This document shows, in pieces, positions 6,008-40,466 of a DNA stretch of 64,000 nt (positions are counted from its first letter, which is position 1; each line of letters starts with the position of its first letter). This DNA is from a virus. The stretch lies in the IMG/VR virus record IMGVR_UViG_3300032893_000735, positions 41,826 to 105,825 of that record. One strand, given 5' to 3'. A program made the position numbers and the translations under genes. The notes under the pieces are model-generated. The model was given only the letters and a program-made list of their open reading frames with translations, was not told the DNA's origin and made no database searches.

Positions 6008-7102
6008 TTAGTTACATGTTGAGCAATTCGGCCAAGTTCCGGAAGTACAATCCCCGAGTTGACCCGATGTTTTCCAACATACTCCGTGTCCAGCCGTGGG
6101 TGTTCCAGAGATCCCTGGGACTCCTAAATTCGTCCTCGCACCTGCCGCCGTAGTTGCTCCTGTGCCGCCGTTGTAAACTGCCGCAGATGTATTGACATTG
6201 GAACCTGACACATTAGGGGTGATCGAATCGGGCGAGATGTACGTGTAAGCGGCCCCCGCCGAGAGACCGTAGTTCATATCCACGCCATTCAGAAGGTTTG
6301 GCGTGCCCGCTGTGTTCGTGTTCGTGAAGGCCACGTTTGCTGTGCCTCCGCCATTCGTCAACAAAGCTCCGGATATAATCATCTGGCCGCTTTGATTCGT
6401 AAGGTTAGCCGTTGCCGATGCCGTGCTCAGTTCGGTGTTGATAAATACAGCCACGGAGCTAGCACCGTTCTGCGTGACAAGCGCCGTACCGGTTAGCCCG
6501 TTGAAATACGGCTGTCCTCCGGTGATCGTAATCGTGCCCGCTGCTTGAACGCTGATGAACTGCGGCGATCCTCCCTGGATCGTAAGATTCGTGTTCAGAG
6601 CCCCGCCAATCCTCGCCGATTGAACCGCACCGGTGTAGGCGTAAGTAACATTCGTGGCCGTGGTGGTGAAGTTGAATAGCGTTGTCGGGCCATTTAGCGT
6701 GATGTTCCCTGTTACCGTTACCGCGCACCCATTCCCGTTGATCGTGGCCGCATAAGCAGGAAATGAAATGTTTCCCGTATACGTGTACGGAGTAGACGTG
6801 GGAGTGCAATTTATCACGAATGGTTCTGTCAGTGCCGATACGGCAGGAAGGAGAGTTGTCAGTGACTTGAACGGATAGGAGATCGATCCATTTTCAGTGT
6901 AACTATCTGCCCTCGTGCCGTCAAGATAAAATGTCGCTACCGGAGTCGTACCAGTCCCTATTCCAGCTCCGTATATAACACCACCCACATAAACATTCCC
7001 GACAACTCCGAGATTTGTGTATGGATAGTTCGTTGTCTGTCCGAATAATGGACTAGCCGCGAGAATCAGCAAGAAAAGAATAGATGCGAGAGTCTTTTTC
7101 AT
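6008..7102 (-). CDS. Thr/Gly-rich beta-solenoid, tail-fibre-like protein with signal peptide
   Basis: N-terminus MKKTLASILFLLILAASPLFGQ; tail-fibre-type motif GGTGATTAAGARTNLG; Cys-rich end. Confidence 0.7.
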   Translation of the reverse strand: MKKTLASILFLLILAASPLFGQTTNYPYTNLGVVGNVYVGGVIYGAGIGTGTTPVATFYLDGTRADSYTENGSISYPFKSLTTLLPAVSALTEPFVINCTPTSTPYTYTGNISFPAYAATINGNGCAVTVTGNITLNGPTTLFNFTTTATNVTYAYTGAVQSARIGGALNTNLTIQGGSPQFISVQAAGTITITGGQPYFNGLTGTALVTQNGASSVAVFINTELSTASATANLTNQSGQMIISGALLTNGGGTANVAFTNTNTAGTPNLLNGVDMNYGLSAGAAYTYISPDSITPNVSGSNVNTSAAVYNGGTGATTAAGARTNLGVPGISGTPTAGHGVCWKTSGQLGDCTSGTWPNCSTCN

Positions 7103-9642: not shown

Positions 9643-9724
9643 TGGAGCGGAAGACGAGATTCGAACTCGCATGTCTAAGACGGTTGCTTGGAAGGCAACG
9701 GCTCTACCACTGAGCGACTTCCGC
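9643..9724 (-). tRNA. tRNA-Gly(TCC) with 12-nt variable arm
   Basis: Anticodon arm GTTGC-CTTCCAA-GCAAC, T loop TTCGAAT, encoded CCA. Confidence 0.9.
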
Positions 9725-9729
9725 GAACT

Positions 9730-9807
9730 TGGTCCCCGAAGACGGACTTGAACCGCCCACCTAGCGGTTATCGACCGCTTGCTCTTGTCAAGATGAGCTA
9801 TTCGGGG
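9730..9807 (-). tRNA. tRNA-Ile(GAT)
   Basis: AGCGG-TCGATAA-CCGCT; CCA. Confidence 0.85.
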
Positions 9808-9808
9808 A

Positions 9809-9882
9809 TGGTGCCGAATAAGAGATTCGAACTCCTGTCTTCTGGGTGTAGACCAGAGGCCCTGCCTTTAGGCGAACTCGGC
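9809..9882 (-). tRNA. tRNA-Val(TAC)
   Basis: TCTGG-TCTACAC-CCAGA; CCA. Confidence 0.88.
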
Positions 9883-9887
9883 AAAAC

Positions 9888-9962
9888 TGGTGATCGCAGA
9901 CAGAATCAAACTGTCATATCAGGCTTCGGAGACCTGCGCTCTGTTCTTTGAGCTATGCGACC
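9888..9962 (-). tRNA. tRNA-Arg(CCG)
   Basis: CAGGT-CTCCGAA-GCCTG; CCA. Confidence 0.85.
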
Positions 9963-9966
9963 AAAC

Positions 9967-10042
9967 TGGAGATCCCGCCGAGACTCAAACTCGGGTCTGA
10001 AGTTTAGGAAACTACTGCTCTATTCTCCTGAGCTACGGGACC
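9967..10042 (-). tRNA. tRNA-Arg(CCT)
   Basis: Loop TTCCTAA; CCA. Confidence 0.85.
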
Positions 10043-10048
10043 GAAACT

Positions 10049-10124
10049 TGGAACTCCTGGAGGGAGTCGAACCCCCGACCTAGACTTTAGAAAAATCCCG
10101 CTCTTCCGTCTGAGCTACAGGAGC
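10049..10124 (-). tRNA. tRNA-Arg(TCT)
   Basis: Loop TTTCTAA; T loop TTCGACT; CCA. Confidence 0.88.
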
Positions 10125-10128
10125 AAAC

Positions 10129-10203
10129 TGGTAGACCGCCAGAGACTCGAACTCTGTCCAAGACGCGGTAAAAGCACGTTATGCACCCTCACACTCACGG
10201 TCC
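10129..10203 (-). tRNA. tRNA-Lys(TTT)
   Basis: ACGTG-CTTTTAC-CGCGT; divergent D arm; CCA. Confidence 0.75.
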
Positions 10204-10209
10204 AAAACT

Positions 10210-10285
10210 TGGTGCGTCCAGAGGGAAACGATCCCCCGACCTTCTCATTAAGAGTGAGTTGCTCTACCAACTGAGCTATGGACGC
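10210..10285 (-). tRNA. tRNA-Lys(CTT)
   Basis: Canonical D arm AGCTCAGTTGGTAGAGC; loop CTCTTAA; CCA. Confidence 0.9.
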
Positions 10286-10286
10286 A

Positions 10287-10379
10287 TGGTAGGCGATGAG
10301 TGAGTTGAACACTCCCGTTGCGCTAATCTGGCGCTTTCCCGAGTCTATAAGTCTCAGCCGCACACCGATGCTATCGCCC
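10287..10379 (-). tRNA. Long-variable-arm tRNA with TAT anticodon (nominally Ile)
   Basis: Acceptor GGGCGAT/ATCGCCT, loop CTTATAG, variable arm GCGC-CAGATTA-GCGC, CCA. Confidence 0.75.
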
Positions 10380-10386
10380 GTAAACT

Positions 10387-10457
10387 TGGTGCCAAAGCGG
10401 GGAATCAAACCCCTCATTCCGCTTTATGAGGGCAGATGCCGAATCATCGGCCTTGGC
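10387..10457 (-). tRNA. tRNA-CAT (Met or Ile2) with reduced D arm
   Basis: Loop CTCATAA; CCA. Confidence 0.7.
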
Positions 10458-10462
10458 AAAAC

Positions 10463-10537
10463 TGGCGGGAGATGTAGGATTTTAACCCACAAGTTCCGGG
10501 TTGGAGCCGGACAGTTTGACATTGAGCTTAATCTCCC
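10463..10537 (-). tRNA. tRNA-Trp(CCA)
   Basis: TCCGG-CTCCAAC-CCGGA; G73; CCA. Confidence 0.8.
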
Positions 10538-10538
10538 G

Positions 10539-10613
10539 TGGAACCCGGTAGCGGAGTTCAACCGCTGTTTCGAAGTTCGTAGCTTCGCGCCTTATGCGTT
10601 AGACGAACCGGGC
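10539..10613 (-). tRNA. tRNA-Arg(ACG)
   Basis: CGAAG-CTACGAA-CTTCG; CCA. Confidence 0.82.
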
Positions 10614-10622
10614 ATTTTAAAA

Positions 10623-10696
10623 TGGTCGGGGTAGAGGTAATCGAAACCTCGTCTTATGATCCCAAATCATAGGCTTGACCTTCCAGCTATACCCCG
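10623..10696 (-). tRNA. tRNA-Pro(TGG)
   Basis: CGGGG start; TATGA-TTTGGGA-TCATA; CCA. Confidence 0.88.
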
Positions 10697-10697
10697 A

Positions 10698-10773
10698 TGG
10701 TGGGCAGTCGCAGAATCGAACTGCGCCGTGAGGCTTTTCAGACCTCCGTTCCAACCATGCAAACTCACTACCC
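10698..10773 (-). tRNA. tRNA-Phe(GAA)
   Basis: GAGGT-CTGAAAA-GCCTC; CCA. Confidence 0.85.
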
Positions 10774-10781
10774 AAAACTTA

Positions 10782-10871
10782 TTCGGTTTTATCTGCATCA
10801 TCATTCTCGGGCATATAAGAGGTTAGTCAAGCTAACGTAGGATGCTTGCAATGGCAGAGCGGGAAACCGAA
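10782..10871 (-). ncRNA. Candidate structured RNA in the tRNA array
   Basis: Terminal pairing TTCGGTTT/AAACCGAA with nested TCTGC/GCAGA and GTTAG/CTAAC stems. Confidence 0.4.
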
Positions 10872-10885
10872 AAACACCTTTGTAT

Positions 10886-10961
10886 TGGTGGAGCATGTCG
10901 GATCTGCCCCGACTGCCTCCGCGTTGCAGGCGCGGCGCTCTCCTAATTGAGCTAATGCCCC
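10886..10961 (-). tRNA. tRNA-Ala(TGC)
   Basis: G3.U70 pair; CCGCG-CCTGCAA-CGCGG; CCA. Confidence 0.9.
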
Positions 10962-11542
10962 TACTCGGGGTGCCTCCATTTGTAAGGCCCGTCCCGATTA
11001 TTATAGTGGTCCAAATCATGACAATTAGGGCATAAGAGTTCCAAATTGTCTATCGTATTATTTGTTCGATCTCTATCCTTATGGTGAACTTGCAAAATTT
11101 CCGGATGAAGATCATACCCACATCTGTTACAAATCTTATCGTAAGTTCGAAGTGCTATCGCTCTGTAGCTGTATCTTCCATCGCCATAATGACTTGGTCT
11201 GAGAATTTCATTATGCTTTCCCATTCTTTGGGCGTCATCTTTGCAGATTCTAGAACAAAATCGGAGTCCGCTCTTCGATTTCTTGAGATTAGATTGACTT
11301 CTGTAAAAGATCAACCCACAGTTGTCACACTTTAGTTCATGTATTTTAGACGGATTGGATGCTCGGAAACATTCAGGGCTACAGTATCTCCTACCTGCAT
11401 GTTTTGGGGCATAGAAACTTTTTCCGCAAAAAGTACAGAACTGCAAAAACAACTTACGCTGCTTTCCATCATAGATAGTTGAAACAATTACCTCTTCCAC
11501 GTTTAGTCCTCTTCTGGGGGCGGGACCTACGCGAATCATCAA
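10961..11542 (-). CDS. HNH homing endonuclease with N-terminal zinc-finger repeats (likely start GTG near 11500)
   Basis: CxxC...YCSxxC repeats; VHHKDRDRTNNTIDNLELLCPNCH; AT-rich. Confidence 0.85.
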   Translation of the reverse strand: MMIRVGPAPRRGLNVEEVIVSTIYDGKQRKLFLQFCTFCGKSFYAPKHAGRRYCSPECFRASNPSKIHELKCDNCGLIFYRSQSNLKKSKSGLRFCSRICKDDAQRMGKHNEILRPSHYGDGRYSYRAIALRTYDKICNRCGYDLHPEILQVHHKDRDRTNNTIDNLELLCPNCHDLDHYNNRDGPYKWRHPE

Positions 11543-11615
11543 TCCACCACCTGTAGAATTTCTATGCTACAGGACATTTACCACGCTTGAGTTTAGCATC
11601 CTCAAACACTTATTT

Positions 11616-11695
11616 TGGGGTGGCCGGAGGAAGTTGAATCCTCAAGAAGCAAATTCCACAGACTTGTCCGACATACCCGTAGTCGGCACGGCCAC
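11616..11695 (-). tRNA. tRNA-His(GTG)
   Basis: Loop CTGTGGA; C73; CCA; extended D stem. Confidence 0.78.
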
Positions 11696-11722
11696 ACTTG
11701 TTGTCCATTATCTGGACGAAAC

Positions 11723-11804
11723 TGGAGCCTAGTGAGGGACTCGAACCCTCGCGTTGGAATGGCAGTTTACAAAACTGCTGCTGTCGCCGCTGAGCCAACT
11801 AGGC
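11723..11804 (-). tRNA. tRNA-Thr(TGT) with enlarged variable loop
   Basis: GCAGT-TTTGTAA-ACTGC; GCC acceptor; CCA. Confidence 0.85.
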
Positions 11805-11850
11805 ATTTCACGTCCGCACTTAGGGAGGCGGAACTCCAACTTACAAAGAA

Positions 11851-11879
11851 ATACTACCACAACATTTCTTAATTGTCAA
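11851..11879 (-). promoter_or_regulatory. Sigma70-type promoter inside the tRNA array
   Basis: TTGACA-17-TAGTAT with TG extension. Confidence 0.75.
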
Positions 11880-11887
11880 GCGAAATC

Positions 11888-11962
11888 TGGAGCCGAATAG
11901 CGGCCTCAAACCGCTGTCTCATGCGTACCAAGCATGTGCTCTTTCTGTTGAGCTAATTCGGC
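11888..11962 (-). tRNA. tRNA-Thr(GGT)
   Basis: CATGC-TTGGTAC-GCATG; CCA. Confidence 0.87.
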
Positions 11963-11963
11963 T

Positions 11964-12037
11964 TGGAGCCCAATTGGGGAATTCAACCCCAGTCTTCTCT
12001 GTACGAAGGAGATGTACTGGCACTGTACTAATCGGGC
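11964..12037 (-). tRNA. tRNA-Thr(CGT)
   Basis: Loop TTCGTAC; CCA. Confidence 0.83.
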
Positions 12038-12043
12038 ATTAGT

Positions 12044-12118
12044 TGGCTCCGCCGCGAGGTTACGATCCCCGTTTCCCGAGTTCAAAGCCCGGTGCCTTAC
12101 CGATTAGACGACGGCGGA
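12044..12118 (-). tRNA. tRNA-Gln(TTG)
   Basis: U1-A72; loop CTTTGAA; G73; CCA. Confidence 0.85.
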
Positions 12119-12124
12119 ATAACT

Positions 12125-12203
12125 TGGGGAGGTAGACGGGAATTGAACCCGCGTAACACGGTGTGAAAGACCGTGGACAAAAACCAGCGTTGTCGGCTAC
12201 CTC
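12125..12203 (-). tRNA. tRNA-Glu(TTC) with atypical D arm
   Basis: CACGGT-CTTTCAC-ACCGTG; T loop TTCAATT; CCA. Confidence 0.78.
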
Positions 12204-12220
12204 AAACTTTTTATCTAAAA

Positions 12221-12307
12221 TGGCGGAAGTCGGAGGTAACGATCCCCCATCCCTTTCGGGAGCCACGGTTTTCAAAACCGTTTGTCTCACCATCGACGGC
12301 GACTTCC
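12221..12307 (-). tRNA. tRNA-Ser(TGA)
   Basis: Loop TTTGAAA; long variable arm; G73; CCA. Confidence 0.85.
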
Positions 12308-12311
12308 AAAC

Positions 12312-12399
12312 TGGCGGTTGGTTGAGAAATCGAATCCCCGTGCCTTACGACACTCCGACTGCTTTCGAAACAGTTTGCGAACCTTTCGCGGAACCAACC
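12312..12399 (-). tRNA. tRNA-Ser(CGA)
   Basis: Loop TTCGAAA; long variable arm; G73; CCA. Confidence 0.82.
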
Positions 12400-12408
12400 T
12401 TAAACTAA

Positions 12409-12547
12409 TTCGCGGAGAGAATTTCGGCGTCAGTACAATGTTTCTTTCGCTGGGCAGTTTCTCTCTGCCTCGGATCGGGTTCTAGACCCCGTTAGCTAGT
12501 ACCTGAAAAGCATCCCTCGTCTGCACACGACCTATTTCTAGCGCGAA
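12409..12547 (-). ncRNA. Candidate multi-stem ncRNA between Ser tRNAs
   Basis: TTCGCG/CGCGAA closing stem with internal CGGG/CCCG and GGCAG/CTGCC hairpins; no cloverleaf. Confidence 0.5.
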
Positions 12548-12549
12548 AC

Positions 12550-12635
12550 TGGCGGAAAGCACAGGAGTTTAACCTGATACCTTTCAGTACGCATCCGCTT
12601 CCAACGGAGCCTCGGAACGTCCGAGTTTACTTTCC
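12550..12635 (-). tRNA. tRNA-Ser(GGA)
   Basis: Loop TTGGAAG; variable arm; G73; CCA. Confidence 0.78.
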
Positions 12636-12636
12636 A

Positions 12637-12725
12637 TGGCGGAGAAGGTGGGTGCTGACCCCACGCGGCTCTTTCAAGTCCACTGGTTTAGCAAACCAGC
12701 CCGTTTACCGTTCCGGCACTTCTCC
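12637..12725 (-). tRNA. tRNA-Ser(GCT)
   Basis: CTGGT-TTGCTAA-ACCAG; variable arm; CCA. Confidence 0.85.
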
Positions 12726-12733
12726 GTAAAACT

Positions 12734-12799
12734 TGGTTGAGAACGTGTGCTCTGGTCGGGTTGATTAAGCACGTTTACCGCAGCCGACCAGCGTTCTCA
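12734..12799 (-). ncRNA. Rod-shaped CCA-terminated RNA (tRNA-like minihelix)
   Basis: TGAGAACG/CGTTCTCA-ACCA plus CTGGTCGG/CCGACCAG; no D, anticodon or T arms. Confidence 0.55.
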
Positions 12800-12803
12800 A
12801 ACT

Positions 12804-12881
12804 TGGTGCGGATGGTCGGATTTGAGCCGACAGACCGAAAGGTTTGAGCTTTCGAGGTATTCCAATTCCCATCACATCCGC
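12804..12881 (-). tRNA. tRNA-Leu(CAA) with short variable loop
   Basis: GAAAG-CTCAAAC-CTTTC; A73; CCA. Confidence 0.82.
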
Positions 12882-12886
12882 AAACT

Positions 12887-12968
12887 TGGTACCCGCAGAG
12901 GGACTTGAACCCCCACCCCTAGAGAATGCATCCTAAGTGCATCGTGTCTGCCATTCCACCATGCGGGC
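12887..12968 (-). tRNA. tRNA-Leu(TAG)
   Basis: D arm GGTGGAATGGCAGACAC; loop CTTAGGA; CCA. Confidence 0.92.
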
Positions 12969-12978
12969 AAAATTAAAC

Positions 12979-13065
12979 TGGTACTCGGGAAGGGACTCGA
13001 ACCCTCATCCCCTTTCGAGGATTAGCACCTCAAGCTAACGCGGCTTCCAATTTCGCCACCCGAGT
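12979..13065 (-). tRNA. tRNA-Leu(GAG)
   Basis: TTAGC-TTGAGGT-GCTAA; variable arm; CCA. Confidence 0.9.
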
Positions 13066-13140
13066 AAAACTTTGTCGGATTTGTCCAGGCGGGGTCCGAC
13101 TGGCCTCGATACGTTTAAAGTGGTGTTTGTCATCCACTAA

Positions 13141-13215
13141 TGGAGTACCGTGCTGGACTTCAACCAGCTAAAGAGGTTTTGCAGACCTCTGATTCGAGCC
13201 TTTATCTTACGGTAC
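13141..13215 (-). tRNA. tRNA-Cys(GCA)
   Basis: GAGGT-CTGCAAA-ACCTC; U73; CCA. Confidence 0.82.
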
Positions 13216-13216
13216 A

Positions 13217-13292
13217 TGGTAGGCGGCCCGAGATTCGAACTCGGATATCAACGATCTTAAATCGTTTGCCTTTGCCGTTAGGCTAGCCGCCC
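13217..13292 (-). tRNA. tRNA-Leu(TAA) with short variable loop
   Basis: AACGA-TTTAAGA-TCGTT; T loop TTCGAAT; CCA. Confidence 0.82.
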
Positions 13293-15968: not shown

Positions 15969-16433
15969 CTGGTTCCATAGTACCAAGTTATTTGTCGTCC
16001 CATAGAACCCGATCTTTATCTTTTGGTTCCATAGTACCAAAACTTTTAAGGGAGGGTCGGGGTCGCTAGGTGAAGTCTCAGTCCTACGGCACAACGCGGG
16101 GGTCAGGCCCCCGGTGGGTGGGCCGCGTTTCGTAGGGTCCCCCGCAAGTCGCACATATCAAACGACTTAGCGCCACCGTAGACAAGTCTCTTGGAGAATC
16201 TCCGCCGGACCGATACTGCATCTATTGCCACACTGTAGTCACAGCTTACCTGTAACCTATTGATTCTAAAGGGGCGATGCAAAACTAATGTTATCGGTCG
16301 ATGGGTTTGGCCGATTCGGTGGCCGATGCCCGGTGAAAACTGTATGTTGATTCTAAACGACTTAGGCCATGTAACCCCGCCGCTGTGTCCTGTTCTATGG
16401 CCGATAGCCTAAGGTAAACGTCTCAGTACTGAG

Positions 16434-16637
16434 TCATTTAGATCCTAATACAGACGTGCTACTTGCCTTGGACACGTCTTTGCCTCTACCCTTGCGCTTT
16501 GCTCTAGTCTTTGGCTTAAGTCTTTTAAAGCCTTGCAGTTGCCTAGTCGCATCCAAGACTTGTTTAATGCTGGCCTTGGGGTCCTGGATAATACGGATTA
16601 GGGCTAGCTCTGCTATTTGAGATTGAGTCTTGGGCAT
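16434..16637 (-). CDS. Small basic hypothetical protein
   Basis: MPKTQSQ... with a very basic C-terminus. Confidence 0.45.
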   Translation of the reverse strand: MPKTQSQIAELALIRIIQDPKASIKQVLDATRQLQGFKRLKPKTRAKRKGRGKDVSKASSTSVLGSK

Positions 16638-16851
16638 TAGGTAAGCGATACTACGTAAGCGTATGGGTTGGTACGGGCCCGTGTGATCCATTGCGAATCT
16701 AGCAATAATTGACCGCGACTGAGGATAGCGCTTGCTGTGTGCGGGCCCGTCTATAGTGTATAGAGTGATTCGGGGCGCGAAAACGTGCATTCCGTCCGTA
16801 AAATGGATTTTCGCAATGTTTTTCGGCCTTCATTATCAATCGTTTAGGGTA

Positions 16852-16910
16852 GTTTTCCACATTTTCCACAGACAGGGGAGATTGACACAAATTCGGGATA
16901 GTGGGAATCT
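16852..16910 (+). promoter_or_regulatory. Early promoter 1 with two TTTTCCACA boxes
   Basis: GTTTTCCACATTTTCCACA...TTGACA-17-(TGg)GAATCT. Confidence 0.55.
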
Positions 16911-16939
16911 AGGAATGTCAACGCAACAAAGGAGACGAG

Positions 16940-17431
16940 ATGGCACAGCAACCAAATTGGAAGAGCATCGGCACGGTCGGAGATGTTAACCCGTTGGACT
17001 ATGACGGCGGATACGTATATGAGGATACGACTGGCGTCTATCCTGCCGAATTGGAATATGTCCGGAATGTATCGGGCACAGAAGACGAAAACGGACCGTG
17101 GGAAGTCTATCGCTGGCCATTGGACCGCTACGAAATGGTCGACGCGGGCGGTGATACGCTGCTAGTGCCGTTTGGGTTTGGCTCTCGTTCAGATCTTCCT
17201 CATCCGCTGGCCAATTACGACGCGTGGTTTAATGACGACATTTCGCAAGTAGCATCCTATGTTGGATCCAACGTTGCGGAGATGCGTGCTTCGCTGTGCT
17301 CCGACAATCCGATGGAGCGGGCCTGGGTATATTTGGACCTTGCGACCTGCCACGGTTTCGAGAATTTCGACTCTTACCCTCTTGACTACTCGGACCGCGA
17401 AGAACTGGAGAAGCGGTACGCAACGTTATAG
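16940..17431 (+). CDS. Acidic hypothetical early protein
   Basis: AAGGAG RBS; first gene of the right arm. Confidence 0.8.
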   Translation: MAQQPNWKSIGTVGDVNPLDYDGGYVYEDTTGVYPAELEYVRNVSGTEDENGPWEVYRWPLDRYEMVDAGGDTLLVPFGFGSRSDLPHPLANYDAWFNDDISQVASYVGSNVAEMRASLCSDNPMERAWVYLDLATCHGFENFDSYPLDYSDREELEKRYATL

Positions 17432-17690
17432 AATCCGTCCAGATAATGGACAACTTACAGCGTAACCCATCCGCTATATGATGGGCGGGGAGTTGAGACA
17501 ATGCCTGATTTTTCTATCGGATGTTTGCTGGTTATTCTCGGCGTAGTGTTGTGTTTAGTGGCGCAGTTTCTCGCCGAATGGATCAATGATTAGCGTCCAT
17601 TTTTCAGACAACACCCTAGGGTAAAATCGCCAGTACTGCGCTGTTTTGCCCTACTGATCTGTACTCACGGCGCAATGGAGGAGCTAGAAA

Positions 17691-17894
17691 ATGAATTCCT
17701 ATGTGGTAATCTGCGGAAACATTGGAATGGTGTATTCCGGCGGAGTGTATCAATCCGCATTGGACGCGTTCACAGTCTACAAAAACAAGTCTATTCGGGG
17801 CGAGGGGCGCGCAAGCGGCGAAAGTGTTACCATGTTCCGGAATGGCGAAGTAATCAAGGAATTCATCGGAAGCACGGACGAAAACGAAGACTAA
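17691..17894 (+). CDS. Hypothetical early protein
   Basis: GGAGGAG RBS. Confidence 0.75.
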   Translation: MNSYVVICGNIGMVYSGGVYQSALDAFTVYKNKSIRGEGRASGESVTMFRNGEVIKEFIGSTDENED

Positions 17895-17896
17895 TC

Positions 17897-17955
17897 GCAG
17901 AGTGGCCGTCCGGAAAATGGACGGTTAATGCGGCGGTCCCGTCACAAGCCGGGAC
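17897..17955 (+). ncRNA. Twister ribozyme (circularly permuted, P1 closed as a hairpin)
   Basis: GCAGAGTG-[P1 hairpin]-TAATGCGGC-g-GTCCCG-TCACAAGC-CGGGAC; loop CAC can pair with GTG (pseudoknot). Confidence 0.8.
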
Positions 17956-17997
17956 AATCCAAACCGTATTCCGTGAAACTCACGGCGAAAGGGAAAC

Positions 17998-18516
17998 ATG
18001 TACGTCCCGAAGAATCTCAAGCTATGGACATTGCCGGATTCATACTTCGGCGAGCGCTGGACGGATTATTACGTGGTAATCGGTGCTCACCGGGACAGCG
18101 ACACAATTTCTCGGTGCAACTTCGATTGCATCCTTGCCGACTTGGAAAAACTGGAATCTGAAACGTGCAAGGAATGGGACAATGGGACGGATGACGAATC
18201 CGCCTTGCAGCACGTCACAGAGAATCATTGGGCCGTTGGATGGGTCGAATGGATCGGAATTCACAAGAATGCGCCCGATGAATTGTTGCGGCGAGCCGAT
18301 GAAATAATTGGCGAGCTGGAAGATTATCCGGTGTACAACGATGACAAGCTGTCAGAATTCGAAGATGAACAGGCTTGTGAAGCTTGGAAGTCTTACAGCT
18401 TGCGGGACCGAATCGAACTATGTGCGGAGTATGGAGTCTCGATTTTCGCCGCGCGGCGCGACTATCCGCCGTATGACGATCAAGGCGGAATTCAGCAAAC
18501 CTTACTAGGCTACTAA
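17998..18516 (+). CDS. Acidic hypothetical early protein
   Basis: AAGGG RBS; HWAVGWVEW motif. Confidence 0.8.
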   Translation: MYVPKNLKLWTLPDSYFGERWTDYYVVIGAHRDSDTISRCNFDCILADLEKLESETCKEWDNGTDDESALQHVTENHWAVGWVEWIGIHKNAPDELLRRADEIIGELEDYPVYNDDKLSEFEDEQACEAWKSYSLRDRIELCAEYGVSIFAARRDYPPYDDQGGIQQTLLGY

Positions 18517-18956
18517 TCCCATTTTCCGGACAAAACAATGAAACCAAATAATTGGATCAATCCTCGGGACGATTACGCGATCTGTAGAGCAAAACAGGTC
18601 GTCGGGTACCGGACCGGCTCCGCCCTGCAATCACACATTAACACTTGTCACGGCGGGCAAGTTTCCGATACTTGCCCCGCGTGCAAAGAGATTCAGCGCA
18701 AGATGGAGGCAGCAAAGTGACCATTCAGCAAGCCGCATGGCAAAAAAGAAGCGACGTTGTCGATGTAGACTGGAAGGAATTGTGGGAGCGGTACGACTAC
18801 CCGCATGCTACGATTCTCGGAGGCTGCCAGAACGTCTCGCACCGCACGGCGCAACCGTTCTGGAGCACACTCAAACGGGCGGCGGTTTTGACCGTGCTGT
18901 TTACGGCAGTGTTCGCCATTTTCACCGCAATTGTGTTTTAGTCCATTTTCTGGAAA

Positions 18957-19005
18957 GTTTTCCACAATTTTCAGGCTTGACACGGAAAACAATAACAACT
19001 AATCT
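18957..19005 (+). promoter_or_regulatory. Early promoter 2
   Basis: GTTTTCCACA...TTGACA-17-TAATCT, preceded by palindrome copy 18941. Confidence 0.7.
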
Positions 19006-19026
19006 TGAATCATTGGAGGGCAAGAC

Positions 19027-19341
19027 ATGGTCCTCGACCCGCGTTACAAAGCAATGGAGAACCCTACTATCCTACTCATGCACGCTATTGGATGGCAGGG
19101 CGGAACGGTTCACCAAGTGGCGGAACATACAGGCTTGCCCGTGCCCGATATTCTTTCCTTACACAAGCATGAGCCGTATTCCGGCTTGAATTCTTCGGCG
19201 TGCTCCGGGTGGACCAGTGTAAGAACGTGTTCTCTCGAATGGAACCAGGAACGGATCTTCCCGAAGTACCACGGCAACATTGACTTTTGGTCCGGGGTTT
19301 TACAGGCTCAGTTCAGCATCGAGGTAATGGGCCTATCCTAA
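19027..19341 (+). CDS. Hypothetical protein
   Basis: GGAGG RBS after the promoter. Confidence 0.7.
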   Translation: MVLDPRYKAMENPTILLMHAIGWQGGTVHQVAEHTGLPVPDILSLHKHEPYSGLNSSACSGWTSVRTCSLEWNQERIFPKYHGNIDFWSGVLQAQFSIEVMGLS

Positions 19342-19535
19342 CGGCACAATCCGAAAAATGGACAACTCACGGGGGGAAGGTGTACCATGAAAACAATTTT
19401 CTGGGATGTGTTTCATAATGGGCGCAAGATTGACAGCGTACCATATTCGGCGGACTGTGATAAGGAATATGTGCGCCGCTCACTGATTGAACACGACGGG
19501 TATAACCCCGACATCCTTGTCCGCAAGGCGCGATA

Positions 19536-19871
19536 ATGCGAATGTGGATGGTCGAACCCCGGCTAATGTGTCGCAAGCATCTGTTAGGTGAGCACGTAGA
19601 GCTGCACATGCTAGTCGGGAGCCTTCAGCGCGGAAAGTCAATAGCAGGTTTCTTGTCTAGGGGCCTGCTAGAACCTCAACACATACGAGAGCGTCACGCG
19701 ATTTTAGTTGCGGAAATGGAACGGCGGGGATACTCTCATAACAGTGCACTCGCGGAATACGAAACCGATATAACCGGCAAGGTGGACAGACAAAAGTCAT
19801 TGCAGGATCTTTCGGGAAGGTGTATCGAGTGTGCGGAACGGATCAAAGAACAAGGAGGCGCGGAAAAATGA
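19536..19871 (+). CDS. denV: Pyrimidine-dimer DNA glycosylase (T4 endonuclease V family)
   Basis: MRMW....LMCRKHLLGEHVELH...RH..LVAEMERRGY.H. Confidence 0.8.
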   Translation: MRMWMVEPRLMCRKHLLGEHVELHMLVGSLQRGKSIAGFLSRGLLEPQHIRERHAILVAEMERRGYSHNSALAEYETDITGKVDRQKSLQDLSGRCIECAERIKEQGGAEK

Positions 19872-20062
19872 TTTTCAGGACAAGGAAAGACGCGAAGTCG
19901 TGGGCGAAAGCGAATCTCCGAGGAAAATACTATCGCCTTGTGACATCTTACGTAAACGCAGAGCGCGGCTATGAGACGAAAATCGCTCTCCAGTCCCGCC
20001 CATTTAGCCGAATGAATGATCCGAAAGTTTACGCCTAACCGCTTAGCCGGAGCGTTATCCGG

Positions 20063-20118
20063 CCCCTCTACCGGGTTTAACGGTCCCGGCACTGATGAGC
20101 GCGAAAGGCGCGAAAGGG
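20063..20118 (+). ncRNA. Hammerhead ribozyme, type III
   Basis: CCC-TC, stem I (CCGGG/CCCGG), CTGATGA, GCGC-GAAAG-GCGC, GAAA, GGG. Confidence 0.85.
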
Positions 20119-20133
20119 AGAATCCAAAAAAAA

Positions 20134-20961
20134 ATGGACAGAACGACGAATCGAGTGGACGTACCGAAACGGGTTTTAGATCGCGTCTACGCATCGAAAC
20201 CTGAAGACTGGAAACAGCACGAAAACGGCGGCGGATGGGTGCATAAAACCGCTTATGTTGAAAAATCGGCTTATTTGCATCCTACGTCGATTGTGTCCGG
20301 CGATGCTCGGGTGTACGGCAATGCTCGGGTGTACGGCGATGCTTGGGTGTCCGGCAATGCTTGGGTGTACGGCAATGCTCGGGTGTACGGCGATGCTTGG
20401 GTGTCCGGCAATGCTCGGGTGTCCGGCAATGCTTGGGTGTCCGGCGATGCTCGGGTGTCCGGCGATGCTCGGGTGTCCGGCGATGCTTGGGTGTCCGGCA
20501 ATGCTCGGGTGTCCGGCAATGCTCAGGTGTCCGGCGATGCTTGGGTGTCCGGCAATGCTCGGGTGTACGGCAATGCTCAGGTGTCCGGCAATGCTCAGGT
20601 GTCCGGCGATGCTTGGGTGTCCGGCAATGCTCGGGTGTACGGCAATGCTCAGGTGTCCGGCGATGCTCGGGTGTACGGCAATGCTCGGGTGTCCGGCGAT
20701 GCTCGGGTGTCCGGCGATGCTTGGGTATTTTCGCCCCTCTACATCCAAGGCACAATGCACTCGCTCACCTTGTGCAGTTTTACGCAAATTGCTGTAGGGT
20801 GCCACGTCCATGATATAACCTATTGGATGAAGCATTACAAGGCAATAGGGCGGACCGAGGGGTACACGAAAGAACAGGTAAGCGAGTACAAACGACATTT
20901 GGATTATTTGGCCGCAGAGTCTGAGCGGCTACTGGCTGCAAAAATCGAAACGAAGGAATAA
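20134..20961 (+). CDS. Hexapeptide-repeat (V[SY]G[ND]A[RWQ]) left-handed beta-helix protein
   Basis: About 24 tandem hexapeptides; likely start ATG 20134 after GGGAG. Confidence 0.8.
   Translation: MDRTTNRVDVPKRVLDRVYASKPEDWKQHENGGGWVHKTAYVEKSAYLHPTSIVSGDARVYGNARVYGDAWVSGNAWVYGNARVYGDAWVSGNARVSGNAWVSGDARVSGDARVSGDAWVSGNARVSGNAQVSGDAWVSGNARVYGNAQVSGNAQVSGDAWVSGNARVYGNAQVSGDARVYGNARVSGDARVSGDAWVFSPLYIQGTMHSLTLCSFTQIAVGCHVHDITYWMKHYKAIGRTEGYTKEQVSEYKRHLDYLAAESERLLAAKIETKE
20293..20727 (+). repeat. 18-bp coding tandem repeat, about 24 units
   Basis: GTGT[CA]CGGC[AG]ATGCT[CT][GA]G units. Confidence 0.95.
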
Positions 20962-20989
20962 CCAACCGCCCGCCGGAGCGTATCCGGTA

Positions 20990-21041
20990 GGCTCTACAGG
21001 CAAGCCGTCACGGGGCAGAGCTGAGCATCTACTAATTGCCT
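20990..21041 (+). ncRNA. Minimal HDV-like ribozyme
   Basis: P1 GGCTCT/AGAGCT (G.U at +1), P2 AGGCAA/TTGCCT, P3 GCC/GGC, 7-nt L3, P1.1 TC/GA, J4/2 CTAA. Confidence 0.8.
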
Positions 21042-21052
21042 AAAGGAGAACC

Positions 21053-21580
21053 ATGAGTAAGTACACGGAACAGGCGGAAAAGTTTCTCAAGGACCACGGC
21101 CTGACATTCACGGCGCAGCTTATCGGGTCTGATTGCCCGAAGTTTTGCGAAGATGCAGCCAAAATGCGGGAAATGGACAACCACGAATTCCTATCAGAAG
21201 TAAACGAAGCGGGCGAAAGTTTTGCAGAATCCGCCCAAGAAATGTTAGACGCACTCCGCGCGGCGCAAGAATCCGAGGACAATGAGGCTGAGGATGAAGC
21301 GCGGCGGACAATTGACGCGCACCCGCTTTCGGTCCAGGTTCGTGGCGGATGGCATACTCCGGGTTGCGGCGGCAGAGTGGCGGAGGAATTCGAGATTCTG
21401 CTAGGCACCGGTGGCCCCGCATCCAGGATCATCGGGGAACTGAACGAATACGCCGAACCCGATTCGGCGCGGTTTGAATATCAGGATTGGTTTAAGCCGT
21501 GGACTCCAGCGCTCAACTTGTCTGAAGATCAGAATGAAGCGATCCTAGAATTTGCCCGCCAGTTCTATTACGGCGAATAA
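21053..21580 (+). CDS. Acidic hypothetical early protein
   Basis: AAGGAG RBS; FEILLGTGGPA..I.G motif. Confidence 0.8.
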   Translation: MSKYTEQAEKFLKDHGLTFTAQLIGSDCPKFCEDAAKMREMDNHEFLSEVNEAGESFAESAQEMLDALRAAQESEDNEAEDEARRTIDAHPLSVQVRGGWHTPGCGGRVAEEFEILLGTGGPASRIIGELNEYAEPDSARFEYQDWFKPWTPALNLSEDQNEAILEFARQFYYGE

Positions 21581-21778
21581 CTCACGGCGCAACCGGCCCG
21601 CCCATCGGCCTAAAGGTGGGGCAGAGAATCAGGAAAGGGGAGTAAAAAAAAAGATGGCATACCCAACTCTTGAGCAATTTGAGCAAGCCCGCCGCGAACT
21701 AAGGCGTGCGGATAACACCGAACTGGAACAGAAAAAGCCAAAGAGCAACGAGTAACAGTCCAGAAAATGGACGACAGA

Positions 21779-21826
21779 GTTTTCCACAGCTTTCGGCTTG
21801 ACAAAAACAACCAAACGAAGTAGTTT
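21779..21826 (+). promoter_or_regulatory. Early promoter 3
   Basis: GTTTTCCACA...TTGACA-17-TAGTTT, preceded by palindrome copy 21758. Confidence 0.7.
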
Positions 21827-22077
21827 TGATTGAAAAGGAGAAACTATGTCACCAGCAACGAAAGGCCAGATCACCAAGGCGCGGAAGATCGAGGACAGCC
21901 GCGCACGTTTTAACGCCGTCCGGGCGGTGTTTGCCAAGTCGATGCCCGCCGAACAAGCAAAGCACGCGGCGCGAAAGGCACTCGTAACGTCCAAGTAATG
22001 GACACGGCAGACTTGCTCTGCCCAGATAGCTAACCCCGATTATCTGGAGAGGGCAAGAACCGAAATAGGGAGAATTT

Positions 22078-22269
22078 GTGATTGAAACCACAATCAAGTG
22101 TGACGTGTGCGGGGCTGTCAAGGGCCAAACCAACCATTGGTTCGACTTGTGGCGGAGCGACGAAGGTTGTATCATCGTGGCCCCATCAAAACCTGACGTA
22201 ACCGCCAGTCAAGTATGCGGGAAGAAATGCCTGCATGTTCTGATCGACAAATTACTGGAGGGGAAATGA
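22078..22269 (+). CDS. Small Cys-rich hypothetical protein
   Basis: GGGAG RBS; CDVC and CGKKC. Confidence 0.65.
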   Translation: MIETTIKCDVCGAVKGQTNHWFDLWRSDEGCIIVAPSKPDVTASQVCGKKCLHVLIDKLLEGK

Positions 22270-22829
22270 ACATCCTAGTCGAACCCCAAGGTGAGGGCGA
22301 CGTAGTGGCAGGAATGGTTAACGGTGTTATCCTGTCTGTCCCGTTTTGGGCAATTGTACTAGTCGTGATGTGGCTGAAGGGGTGCTTGTGAGGAAACCAA
22401 TTGCAACTTTGGAGATCACTGCGGGGTCCCTCCTTCGCGGAGAAATTCGCAGAGAACTTGACAAAATTGTCTATCGACACCCTGAGATTTCTTACCGTGA
22501 GTTTAAGGGATTTCTTTCTAGTGATTTCATCATACGTGGCCCTTTGGCGCATGTAGGCAGGATCAAGAGGTGGCTGGAGGAGGTAGGCAATTGACCGACC
22601 TCACGGCGAGATCAACCCGGCTACGATTCACAACCAGCTCCGAGGTTCGGGAGGCGGGCAAGCATCGGAGAGTAGTCTGCGAAGCGCGACCACAATACCT
22701 GATTGTCAAGGCATCCGGCCTGCATTCGTGTTATAGTATCCCTTGGGATGCTATCTGGAGCCTAGCAGTTAAACAAGATGTCGCGGCTAAGAAGGCCGCG
22801 AAGAAGGCGAAGAAGGAACCGTCCAAATA

Positions 22830-23993
22830 ATGGACGAGAAAGCAGGATCAATGAAAGGCTTCAAGGGTTTTGACAAGGATCTGAAGTGCCGAGGTTTCCA
22901 ATACGAACTTGGCAAAACATTCGCCCACGAAGGAACCGTAGACCTTTGTTCGCCCGGCTTCCATTTCTGCGAAAACCCGCTTGACGTGCTCTCTTATTAC
23001 GGGGTGGCAAACGGAAATCGTTTCGCGGAAGTAGAGGTCGATGGAGTAACTGACCAGAAGGAAAACGATTCAAAACGGGTCTGTTCTTCTCTTGCCATCG
23101 GTGCAGAAATTTCCCTCAAGAATCTAGTCGATCATTCGATTAAATTCATCTTCAACAAAACCACAAACCCCACCAGTGGCGACTACGCGCACTCGGCCAC
23201 CAGCGGCGACTACGCGCACTCGGCCACCAGCGGCAACAACGCGCACTCGGCCACCAGTGGCGACTGCGCGCCCTCGGCCACCAGTGGCGACTGCGCGCGC
23301 TCGGCCACCAGCGGCAACAACGCGCATTCGGCCACCAGCGGCGACTACGCGCACTCGGCCACCAGCGGCGTCTACGCGCACTCGGCCACCAGCGGCAACT
23401 ACGCGCACTCGGCCACCAGCGGCAACTACGCGCACTCGGCCACCAGCGGCGACTACGCGCACTCGGCCACCAGCGGCAACAACGCGCACTCGGCCACCAG
23501 CGGCGTCTACGCGCACTCGGCCACCAGCGGCATCTACGCGCGCTCGGCCACCAGCGGCAACTACGCGCACTCGGCCACCAGCGGCGACTACGCGCACTCG
23601 GCCACCAGCGGCAACAACGCGCATTCGGCCACCAGCGGCGACTACGCGCACTCGGCCACCAGCGGCAACAACGCGCACTCGGCCACCAGCGGCATCTACG
23701 CGCGCTCGGCCACCAGCGGCAACTACGCGCACTCGGCCACCAGCGGCGACTACGCGCATTCGGCCACCAGCGGCGACTACGCGCGCTCGTCTGCTATGGG
23801 GGGAAATTCAATAGCCGCCGCTATTGGTAGAAACGGCGCAGCAAAGGCATCCGTAGGAAACTGGATCGTTCTGGCGGAATACAAGGACAACGGAGAGATT
23901 GTATCCGTGAAAATGGCAAAAGTGGACGGCGAGAAGATCAAGGCCGACACTTTTTACCAACTCAAAAACGGGGAGTTTACGGAAGCTGAATGA
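22830..23993 (+). CDS. DUF7666-like protein with 9-residue (SATSGxYAH) repeats
   Basis: KGFDKDLKCRGFQYE...GFHFCENPLDV N-terminus; VDGEKIKADTFY C-terminus. Confidence 0.85.
   Translation: MDEKAGSMKGFKGFDKDLKCRGFQYELGKTFAHEGTVDLCSPGFHFCENPLDVLSYYGVANGNRFAEVEVDGVTDQKENDSKRVCSSLAIGAEISLKNLVDHSIKFIFNKTTNPTSGDYAHSATSGDYAHSATSGNNAHSATSGDCAPSATSGDCARSATSGNNAHSATSGDYAHSATSGVYAHSATSGNYAHSATSGNYAHSATSGDYAHSATSGNNAHSATSGVYAHSATSGIYARSATSGNYAHSATSGDYAHSATSGNNAHSATSGDYAHSATSGNNAHSATSGIYARSATSGNYAHSATSGDYAHSATSGDYARSSAMGGNSIAAAIGRNGAAKASVGNWIVLAEYKDNGEIVSVKMAKVDGEKIKADTFYQLKNGEFTEAE
23171..23789 (+). repeat. 27-bp coding tandem repeat, about 23 units
   Basis: CCACCAGCGGCxxCTACGCGCACTCGG units. Confidence 0.95.
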
Positions 23994-25081
23994 CCAATCT
24001 AACCAAACGCGGAAACGTGTACCATTATCAATCCACAGTCGGCGGGAATCGCCTTCGCTGTTCGTTGGGCGTCTCTGACCCGAAGTCCGCGTCTCGGCTG
24101 GAGAACCGCGTCACCTTTGCTCTGGCGGACGGGCCAAAGTCCGCTATCTGGCCCGAACTGAAAGCGGCGCTCCCGAAGACCGGTTTTGATATTTTAACCA
24201 AAAACTTGAACCTTCCGGCGGATTCTCCTGACCTGCTAGAGTTTGAGCAATCGTTTTTAAAGGATCTGTCCCGCCGAGCGGACCTAAGCGACATCGCCGC
24301 TTCCACGGCAGAAATGTATGGGCGGATTTGCGGTACTTTTTTTGATCGGATGGTCGAGATTGGCGTCCAGAAAATTGACGAACTCACGGCGCAAACGATG
24401 GCCGATTACTTTGTCTGGCGGAAGAAATCTATACTGGCCAAAAACCCGGACAAAGGTGCTAGGGGTCTCGAAACCGAAAGCCGCATCTTGAAAGAGATGT
24501 TCAACTTCGCGGAGAAATCCGGCCTACCAGCACCCCAGTTTGACCCGTACAAGTCGCCGGTCGCGGCGGACGAACCTGATCCGTTTTCGGCGGACGATCT
24601 GGAAAAAATGAATAGTGTAGCCGAAGAAACCGAACGACTTGTCTACTTGATTTTCCGATGGACAGGTCTTCGCCGGTCGGACGTAGCGGATCTAACCTGG
24701 GGCGCAATCGAATGGGGGAAGTCGGTTCTGTCCTGTGTTACCAAGAAGCGGAAAGTGATGGTTCATGTTCCGATGGCTCCAGTTTTGGTCGATGCGCTAA
24801 AGGATGTGTACTCGGGTCAACCCGCGTCCGAAAATATTTTGGTCGGACTCACCAAAAACATGCTATACTCAATCATCAAGGGTTTGGGGGAGAAGGCTGG
24901 AGTTGAGAACTGCCACCCCCATAGGTTCCGCCACACGTTCGCTATTAACATTTTGGAGCGCGGCGGATCGATCTATGACGTGGCTAAGATCCTGGGCAAC
25001 CAAACCAGCACCGTAGAGAAATACTACGGGAAATTCACTGATCAGGCGCAGGAACGAGTACGGACAATGTTGTCCAAATAA
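23990..25081 (+). CDS. int: Tyrosine recombinase/integrase
   Basis: TGLRRSD, TKK, HPHRFRHTFA, LGN...YY. Confidence 0.9.
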   Translation: MTNLTKRGNVYHYQSTVGGNRLRCSLGVSDPKSASRLENRVTFALADGPKSAIWPELKAALPKTGFDILTKNLNLPADSPDLLEFEQSFLKDLSRRADLSDIAASTAEMYGRICGTFFDRMVEIGVQKIDELTAQTMADYFVWRKKSILAKNPDKGARGLETESRILKEMFNFAEKSGLPAPQFDPYKSPVAADEPDPFSADDLEKMNSVAEETERLVYLIFRWTGLRRSDVADLTWGAIEWGKSVLSCVTKKRKVMVHVPMAPVLVDALKDVYSGQPASENILVGLTKNMLYSIIKGLGEKAGVENCHPHRFRHTFAINILERGGSIYDVAKILGNQTSTVEKYYGKFTDQAQERVRTMLSK

Positions 25082-30939: not shown

Positions 30940-31155
30940 TCAAACTGAAAAATAGCAGCGGGGTTTTGGTCTGGGCTAACCCCGACCAAGTAGCTATGTT
31001 GTTCCAGCGGCCAGTAGATATCTCGGAGAGCACTTTGGTTTTCGCAAACGGAATGGTAGAGAAGTTCAACTACTCCGGGCAGTATCTGGCGGACCTGTTG
31101 GATGGGAAAGAAGTTCTAACCGATTAACCGTCCAGAAAATGGACAAGGAGACGTT

Positions 31156-31959
31156 ATGTTTGAAGTATCGGGAGTGGTAGCCGGAAATATTCCGTATTCC
31201 CTTCTAAAGTTTTCGGGAGGAGAGTTGCATCCTAAACTTCTGAAGAACATAAATGGCAGGGAAACCGCAATTCACATCCACGGAAATATCACATCATCCG
31301 ATGACCTAATGGAACTTGCTCTTTTGGTGGATGCCCTCCGCCGGAGCGCTGTTCCTTGTCCGCCAATCACGGCGTCGATTCCTTACTTTCCTTACGCTCG
31401 CCAAGATCGAGCTTGCGCACAAGGGGAATCTCTAGCCGTCAAGGTGGCTTGTGATTTCATCAATAGCCTTAATTTTGTTTCCGTGGAAGTATGGGACGCC
31501 CACAGTGATGTGACTACGGCTCTTTTGAACAGATCTATCAATCGGCATCAGAAAGAATTTGTCTCCCGAATTAAGTGGCAGAATACCGTTCTGGTGGCCC
31601 CAGACGCCGGGGCTATTAAGAAAATTCTGGAGATTGCCAAACTCACGAGTATGTCAGTGGTACGCGCCGATAAAATTCGTAGCGTAGAAGACGGAAGCAT
31701 TACCGGAACCGTGGTATACTCGGAACACATCGGAAACAAGGATTTCCTGATTGCTGATGATATTTGTGATGGAGGACGAACTTTCATTGAACTGGCTAAG
31801 GTTCTTAGACCGCTGACAACTGGAAAAATCTATCTGTATGTCACGCATGGAATTTTCAGCAAGGGATTGGATGTGTTTAACGGACTTATTGACGGAGTTT
31901 ACACGGCCAATCCGTTCCCAGACGTGGACATCTCCCACAAACTTCTGACAATCATTTAG
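31156..31959 (+). CDS. prs: PRPP synthetase-like protein (Adps candidate)
   Basis: FSGGE, PYFPYARQDR, DAHS, APDAGA, DDICDGGRTF, VTHGIFSKG. Confidence 0.92.
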   Translation: MFEVSGVVAGNIPYSLLKFSGGELHPKLLKNINGRETAIHIHGNITSSDDLMELALLVDALRRSAVPCPPITASIPYFPYARQDRACAQGESLAVKVACDFINSLNFVSVEVWDAHSDVTTALLNRSINRHQKEFVSRIKWQNTVLVAPDAGAIKKILEIAKLTSMSVVRADKIRSVEDGSITGTVVYSEHIGNKDFLIADDICDGGRTFIELAKVLRPLTTGKIYLYVTHGIFSKGLDVFNGLIDGVYTANPFPDVDISHKLLTII

Positions 31960-31967
31960 GAGGCAAT

Positions 31968-40277: not shown

Positions 40278-40466
40278 ATGGACAAGTGGATTAGCGTAGA
40301 GGAAGAACTGCCGAAATTCGTAGGCAAAAGTGCAGGAGACGGTCGAGACTTCGCCTACATCGGTTGGGACGGCGTAGACATCGCACCCCTTAACGAATAT
40401 TCAGGGTATTGGCCGCATCTTGTGACCCACTGGATGCCTCTTCCGGAACCGCCGAAGGAGAAGTGA
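40278..40466 (+). CDS. DUF551-like small protein
   Basis: WISVEEELP...VTHWMPLPEPP. Confidence 0.7.
   Translation: MDKWISVEEELPKFVGKSAGDGRDFAYIGWDGVDIAPLNEYSGYWPHLVTHWMPLPEPPKEK

Follow-up and report, generated by a model that had tools for sequence, protein, structure and literature searches.

Candidate self-cleaving ribozymes of three classes, each with a hairpin before its predicted cut, in the gene spacers of an uncultured wetland phage

The right-hand 64 kb (64,000 nucleotides, nt; hereafter the window, whose coordinates are used throughout) of the 105,825-bp IMG/VR record IMGVR_UViG_3300032893_000735, an uncultured phage from a wetland metagenome assembly with an estimated completeness of 98%, was found to hold candidate self-cleaving ribozymes of three classes within one block of genes. 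A twister ribozyme (17896..17953), a type III hammerhead (20064..20120) and a minimal element like the hepatitis delta virus (HDV) ribozyme (the HDV-like element; 20990..21041) were identified on the plus strand. All three are in the sense orientation, each past a stop codon and ahead of the next gene's ribosome-binding site, as the original prediction had read from the sequence. The predicted cuts of the twister and of the HDV-like element each fall 1 nt, and that of the hammerhead 5 nt, past the base of a stable hairpin, which would leave a hairpin at the end of the upstream product, and ribozymes of other classes were found at one of these junctions in relatives of the phage. The three elements are probably cis-acting self-cleaving RNAs which, from spacers among small accessory genes that all run in one direction, would yield hairpin-capped single-gene messages.

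The twister is of type P5 and was recognized by the Rfam model RF02684 with 57.3 bits (E 2.8e-9) over a curated cut-off of 37.6 bits, the alignment spanning model positions 1-58 of 58. It starts 2 nt past the stop codon (17892-17894) of a gene encoding 67 amino acids (aa; 17691..17894, plus strand), which has a homologue at the syntenic place in the relative L122 (52% identity). It ends 44 nt before the ATG at 17998, with which a 172-aa gene begins (17998..18516, plus strand; weak PHROG match, homologues in L187 and L188). In the cmscan alignment the helices were P2 (17896-99/17929-32), P1 (17905-12/17918-25) and P4 (17938-41/17950-53), and both pseudoknots are possible, GUG 17902-04 with CAC 17943-45 and GC 17933-34 with GC 17948-49, the former being a compensated form of the consensus GGG/CCC. 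The features that define membership of the class, namely P1, P2, P4, two pseudoknots and the UAA cleavage loop, were thus all present. From the family consensus, the cut is predicted between U17926 and A17927, 1 base past the element's own P1 hairpin.

The hammerhead was identified with a descriptor of our own (core, three stems and H17), which was run on both strands of the genome with 200 dinucleotide shuffles as control; it gave a single match in the 106-kb genome, versus 0.005 expected per shuffled genome. Stems I (20069-75/20085-91), II (20099-102/20108-11) and III (20064-67/20115-18) have 6, 4 and 4 bp, respectively, stem I also containing one A.C mismatch at its second pair. The invariant core is complete (CUGAUGA 20092-98; GAA 20112-14; A15.1-U16.1, that is A20115-U20067; C17, that is C20068), and by the criteria of Perreault et al. 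(2011; PMC3088659) the core-flanking pairs U20069-A20091, G20099-C20111 and A20115-U20067 are intact. When the element was folded alone, the minimum-energy structure was the three-way junction, and the cut is predicted between C20068 and U20069. Before the ATG at 20134, the sole Shine-Dalgarno-like sequence is GGGAG (20116-20120), the 3' strand of stem III; it is likely the ribosome-binding site of the gene that starts there. This gene encodes a 275-aa protein with YdcK-type beta-solenoid repeats (20134..20961, plus strand; PF18836 126 bits, PF04519 40.6 bits) and is bracketed by the hammerhead on its 5' side and the HDV-like element on its 3' side.

The third element follows the format of minimal HDV-like (theta) ribozymes and has no P4 helix. 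The segment format was taken from the supplementary tables of Kienbeck et al. (2024; PMC10879173), and a descriptor in this format gave 1 match in the genome and 0 in 600 shuffled genomes. In 1.67 Mb of other phage DNA it gave 0 matches, and 1 when the catalytic C was replaced by A, G or U, a control adopted from the same study (PMC10879173). An earlier, loose HDV descriptor had given 0.18 matches per shuffled genome and was unconvincing. The nested double pseudoknot can be drawn without mismatch from P1 (20990-95/21017-22), P2 (20998-21003/21036-41), P3 (21004-06/21014-16) and P1.1 (21008-09/21023-24), with G20990.U21022 as the first pair. P1 has 6 bp, J1/2 has 2 nt, P3 pairs GCC with GGC and P1.1 pairs UC with GA; P2 has 6 bp, versus 7 in the published format. 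L3 (21007-13) reads GUCACGG, 7 nt with an internal ACG, and 7 unpaired bases replace P4. J4/2 is CUAA, the commonest form in the published table (PMC10879173), with C21032 as the candidate catalytic base, and the cut is predicted between A20989 and G20990. An exact search of viral contigs with the unusual L3 and its flanks returned no match. The gene on the 3' side, of 175 aa and unknown function (21053..21580, plus strand), belongs to a large phage family and has its ribosome-binding site at 21043-50.

The hairpins in front of the hammerhead and the HDV-like element were described in the original prediction as near-identical, and this was confirmed. The first (20037..20063, plus strand) consists of an ACCGC box (20037-42), a stem (20046-51/20058-63) and the loop GCGUUA; the second (20964..20988, plus strand) of an ACCGCC box (20964-71), a stem (20972-77/20983-88) and the loop GCGUA. 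The first box is overlapped by the stop codon TAA (20036-38) of a small gene of 56 aa (19868..20038, plus strand). The hairpin string CCGGAGCG(T)TATCCGG, at 20047-20062 and 20973-20987, has only these two copies in the genome, with 0 expected in the window.

In the processing proposed here, each ribozyme would fold and cut itself while the polycistronic RNA is being synthesized. The 5' product would end in a stable hairpin followed by 1-5 nt and a 2',3'-cyclic phosphate, the cap being the twister's own P1 in one case and the ACCGCC-box hairpin in the cases of the hammerhead and the HDV-like element. The 3' product would start with a 5'-OH and would carry most of the ribozyme as a folded leader, followed by the ribosome-binding site of the next gene. 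Single-gene messages would result, the beta-solenoid gene (20134-20961) being excised on both sides, and message stability and translation would be uncoupled from those of the neighbouring genes. We infer transcription across the spacers, the cleavage itself and the effect on stability; the plus strand showed no terminator-like site from 16300 to 22700, a result compatible with read-through transcription.

The 175-aa gene family comprised 294 homologous proteins, and these gave access to related loci; a search for close relatives via single proteins in viral contigs found none. The original prediction had proposed a check of whether relatives exchange ribozyme class at the same spacers; at the junction before this gene, a twister-P1 was found in L122 and a full HDV-like ribozyme in L179. 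L122, from a 104.7-kb contig, has four genes in the same order as the window, and the genes between these conserved anchors differ. Before its homologue stand a box-hairpin variant, immediately behind it a twister-P1 (52.2 bits, E 1.4e-9; a short P3 keeps the score under the family's high cut-off) and a ribosome-binding site. The predicted cut of this twister-P1 lies 4 nt past the hairpin, and the 3' strand of its helix P1 (GGGGA, within GGGGAGG) is itself the ribosome-binding site of the homologue. Within 3.2 kb (L179:2849-5989), the phage fragment L179 carries a twister-sister (55.3 bits, above the cut-off) and five HDV-like ribozymes that have P4 (33-38 bits), which together occupy most junctions of a run of small genes; one HDV-like ribozyme directly precedes the homologue and one directly follows it. 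In three of the five, a stable hairpin of unrelated sequence ends 2-4 nt before the cut.

Other relatives show partial versions of this layout. In L202, a hairpin and then a hammerhead-like sequence without U4 precede the small gene before the homologue; L053 has the hairpin alone before its homologue of the 175-aa family, immediately ahead of a ribosome-binding site; and in L282 the same hairpin stands directly before the ribosome-binding site of an unidentified gene, away from that junction. Type II hammerheads were found near the homologue in L159, L171, L259 and L306. The predicted ribozymes are therefore sporadic; where present, they occupy the same slot behind a hairpin, with the class differing between phages. 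The occurrence of a different class behind the hairpin at the same junction in L122 and L179 fits interchangeable modules, and it supports, at the level of sequence, an interchangeability of three ribozyme classes at the junction of the 175-aa gene.

Some further structures in these relatives were observed. L122 contains a possible HDV-like element at 6144-6218 (21 bits, E 2.5, over-long L3). At L122:2918-2990, in the spacer homologous to that of the twister, there are a hairpin, UAACGCACC and a twister-like P4 whose loop reads CAAGC; the segment lacks a P2 strand to match and gave no Rfam hit. The same element occurs in L053 around 6078 (minus strand), where a two-base change of the P4 loop from UCC to CUC is matched by a change from GGA to GAG beside the ribosome-binding site. 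The shared element may be a twister-derived regulatory fold.

The box-hairpin itself proved to be widespread. When IMG/VR was scanned with the hairpin string, many contigs were obtained, in ~30 of which the hairpin lies in a spacer behind the same box; in these, the box reads (U)AACCGCC and often overlaps a UAA stop codon. In an alignment of 29 copies, 97.7% of the cells pair, the outer pair occurs as GC, CG, AU and GU, and one inner A-U is replaced by G-C; the invariant CCGG core of the aligned hairpins is partly a consequence of how the copies were found. Hairpin variants with other loops are present in L053 (five copies in all), L122, L202 and L282. In most contigs the ribosome-binding site lies directly 3' of the hairpin with no catalogued ribozyme in between, which marks the box-hairpin as an independent spacer element, and a catalogued ribozyme does not generally follow the box-hairpin (16 loci at the gathering threshold, 10 at E<=1). 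The box-hairpin is thus an uncatalogued, recurrent phage spacer motif, both copies of which happen to precede a ribozyme in the present genome. The exact hairpin strings were not found in a literature search.

Several identities were considered for the motif and dropped. A promoter of the extracytoplasmic function (ECF) type was rejected on the AAC-to-CGT spacing of 12-13 nt, the spacing in ECF-type promoters being 16-17 nt. A lambda-type nut site was rejected on the several copies per operon, and an intrinsic terminator on the missing U run. An integron attC site and a tRNA-like arm were likewise set aside.

Strain variation in the source sample touched the motif. A minor strain lacks the small gene 19868-20038, with 19842 joined to 20046 through AACCGCCC, at the box, and in a second contig the upstream side of hairpin 2 (20981) runs into the downstream side of hairpin 1; these variant contigs are short and of low depth. 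As far as such assemblies allow, the junctions fit an exchange of modules at the motif. Inside the three ribozyme elements, the contigs of the source sample showed no variation. It is conceivable, if improbable, that the ACCGCC-box hairpin does more than cap a 3' end passively and is a portable, sequence-specific end module that a factor of the host or phage recognizes or that serves as a point of recombination.

A number of observations weigh against hairpin-capped processing by three active ribozymes. Most of the ~190 other loci have no ribozyme at these junctions, and no public RNA run with the region is listed. Rfam recognizes neither the hammerhead nor the HDV-like element at useful scores: of the three classes originally proposed for a check with these models, the twister was confirmed, but the hammerhead gave only a permuted RF02276 match of 20.3 bits (E=1; cut-off 37) and no match to RF00008 (cut-off 48.5), and the HDV-like element matched neither RF00094 nor RF02682 up to E = 10. 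For the hammerhead this is weak evidence, since RF02276 also underscores or misses canonical type II hammerheads, giving only ~30 bits for L171 and L306 and leaving that of L159 unreported, also in a permissive scan. Inclusion of the upstream hairpin in the fold produced a slightly more stable alternative that breaks stem I of the hammerhead. The HDV-like element has G21007 at the first position of L3, where the consensus is U. In the HDV ribozyme structure, this U pairs with a G of L3 and holds the catalytic metal ion. It is fixed in the published theta descriptor and more than 97% conserved (PMC10879173). The original proposal of processing into hairpin-capped units stands on the spacing of the cuts and the layouts in relatives, and is weakened where the HDV-like element departs at this near-invariant base. 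By its sequence the element is almost certainly of HDV-like descent, and because G replaces the nearly invariant U its activity is uncertain, with about one chance in two that it cleaves. A rival reading confines activity to the twister and perhaps the hammerhead; the HDV-like element would then be what decay has left of a full HDV-like ribozyme of the L179 type, and would no longer cut. This reading must be given considerable room, at somewhat less than an even chance. It would account for the substituted U, the P2 one pair short, the absence of P4 and the lack of an Rfam match, and decay does occur in this phage group, as the evidently decayed hammerhead of L202, without U4 and behind the same kind of hairpin, indicates. 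It is harder to reconcile with an element that keeps all four helices, G.U as its first pair, the ACG in L3 and a CUAA junction intact, with a motif that never arose in 600 shuffles and with the in vitro activity of theta ribozymes that also have no P4 (PMC10879173).

The placement of ribosome-binding sites bears on another explanation, namely that the ribozymes are mainly translation switches triggered by cleavage, with the ribosome-binding site held in a helix and freed as the short helix falls apart after the cut. The GGGAG in stem III of the hammerhead and the 3' strand of P1 in the L122 twister-P1 are arranged in this way, but the twister of the window ends 44 nt before the start codon and the HDV-like element ends just before the site AAAGGAGA and does not extend across it. 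A switch would therefore hold in two of the four cases; it may add to processing and does not replace it, and as the main function we consider it unlikely. Less likely again is that box-hairpin and ribozyme are chiefly borders of gene cassettes, the 25-nt motif being a recombination point and the ribozymes having no role in expression. The motif does lie at gene borders in many otherwise unrelated viral contigs, in the minor strain the upstream sequence changes exactly at the motif, the second contig links the two hairpins, and between conserved anchors the window and L122 have different genes. Against this, the intact ribozyme cores argue for selection on cleavage, and the hairpins before the cuts of L179 are unrelated in sequence, so that the hairpin-then-cut layout is independent of one recombination sequence. 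Least of all do we favour a further suggestion of the original prediction, that an Rnl2-like phage ligase acts on the ribozyme ends, rejoining or circularizing them in RNA repair or splicing. The protein encoded at 47730-48797 does carry an RNA_ligase domain (PF09414 48 bits), but its likeness to Rnl2 is distant (35 bits, far under the cut-off of 197). Rnl2-type ligases join a 3'-OH to a 5'-phosphate, and not a 2',3'-cyclic phosphate to a 5'-OH. The genome search for end-healing enzymes found no RtcB, no polynucleotide kinase and no PNK3P-type 3'-phosphatase, which leaves the link between ligase and ribozymes unsupported; the one weak P-loop match was a clamp-loader-like AAA+ protein. With more than 20 tRNA genes in the phage, tRNA repair offers a more usual task for the ligase. 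In favour of rejoining, phages that have theta ribozymes are enriched in an RNA ligase family, though a different one, DRB0094 (PMC10879173). Spliced or circular products from clustered hammerheads were sought by Perreault et al. and none were found (PMC3088659). We regard rejoining as very improbable.

In hairpin-capped processing, the reading that we prefer, two folds are possible at the first box-hairpin. Between 20040 and 20134, four CCGG-type segments (the two hairpin arms and both strands of stem I) can pair in two ways, giving either the hairpin with the active hammerhead or, ~2-3 kcal/mol more stable, a nested fold in which stem I is destroyed. The order of transcription, or a ribosome stopped at 20036-38, could decide between the two folds.

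With regard to the genome setting, gene direction in the window switches from the minus strand left of ~16.8 kb to the plus strand from 16.9 kb on. The region with the three ribozymes forms the start of the plus-strand block and lies amid small genes of unknown function; the label "early", which the original prediction gave it, derives from position only. An integrase gene (23990-25081) lies beyond the region, and the phage is therefore probably temperate. The tRNA genes, more than 20 in number, are clustered at 9646-13292 on the minus strand; two of them score only as weak tRNA-Sec-like. The window has 48 occurrences, versus 5.8 expected, of a 15-bp palindrome, GTCC-N7-GGAC (mostly GTCCAGAAAATGGAC), in spacers and gene interiors and in both orientations (for example at 17908-17922, 21758-21772, 31130-31144 and 47349-47363). 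One copy forms the top of the twister P1 hairpin, and L122 has the palindrome in most spacers. At 31156-33437, a ribose-phosphate pyrophosphokinase-like gene adjoins a nicotinate phosphoribosyltransferase gene (587 bits), possibly as a nicotinamide adenine dinucleotide (NAD) salvage pair of the phage. A UvrD-type helicase is split into N-terminal domains (39062-40081) and a C-terminal domain (40409-41311), with a 61-aa open reading frame and a 145-nt gap between the halves.

In the early mRNA of phage T7, RNase III cuts between genes at the sites R0.3 to R1.3. The arrangement in the window resembles this processing in its intergenic cuts of a polycistronic RNA and in upstream products that end in a hairpin, which in T7 protects the 3' end. 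In T7, a host protein cuts a double-stranded site and leaves a 3'-OH and a 5'-phosphate; in the window, self-cutting of the RNA would produce a 2',3'-cyclic phosphate and a 5'-OH. Closer to the present case are the clustered hammerheads of prophages, which flank single genes and for which the cutting of long transcripts into gene-length messages was proposed in 2011; when a native array of three was transcribed in vitro, all three hammerheads cleaved (PMC3088659). The window shares with those arrays several sense-strand ribozymes in phage spacers that bracket single genes, and differs from them in uniting three classes in one block, in the hairpin 5' of each predicted cut and in the change of class between relatives. 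More generally, ribozyme classes of bacteria and phages tend to adjoin each other and phage genes, an association on which later ribozyme discovery was based; their role has been called elusive, and processing of polycistronic RNA has been suggested (PMC6765202). Different classes close together and near phage genes are found here as well; whereas those associations are statistical, the window offers a concrete array of three classes with positional homology to the arrays of relatives. The HDV-like element agrees with theta ribozymes (Kienbeck et al., 2024; PMC10879173) in the order and lengths of segments, the G.U first pair, the 3-bp P3, the 7-nt L3 with internal CG, the two-pair P1.1, the short unpaired L4 in place of P4 and the CUAA. 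It differs from them in having no adjacent tRNA, an L3 that starts with G, a P2 of 6 bp and an origin from wetland rather than gut. In the same work, 526 "isolated" theta hits away from tRNAs were reported, with unknown role (PMC10879173).

The locus is a clean modular example of a known arrangement. Its contribution lies in a regular layout of hairpin and then cut, in the box-hairpin motif that it shares with other phages and in evidence from position for three interchangeable classes. Together with L122 and L179 it makes a compact test case, in which one junction carries three classes in three phages, with a hairpin before each predicted cut, and in which the idea of message punctuation with hairpin caps can be tested on a 3-kb construct. 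For minimal HDV-like ribozymes, so far explained only beside tRNAs, the locus supplies an mRNA context, and it points to an uncatalogued spacer motif common to many phages. Should the box-hairpin turn out, against present expectation, to be a portable end module, then box-hairpin and exchangeable ribozyme (twister, hammerhead or HDV-like) would together make up a mobile intercistronic cassette, exchanged among phages as a means of setting message borders.

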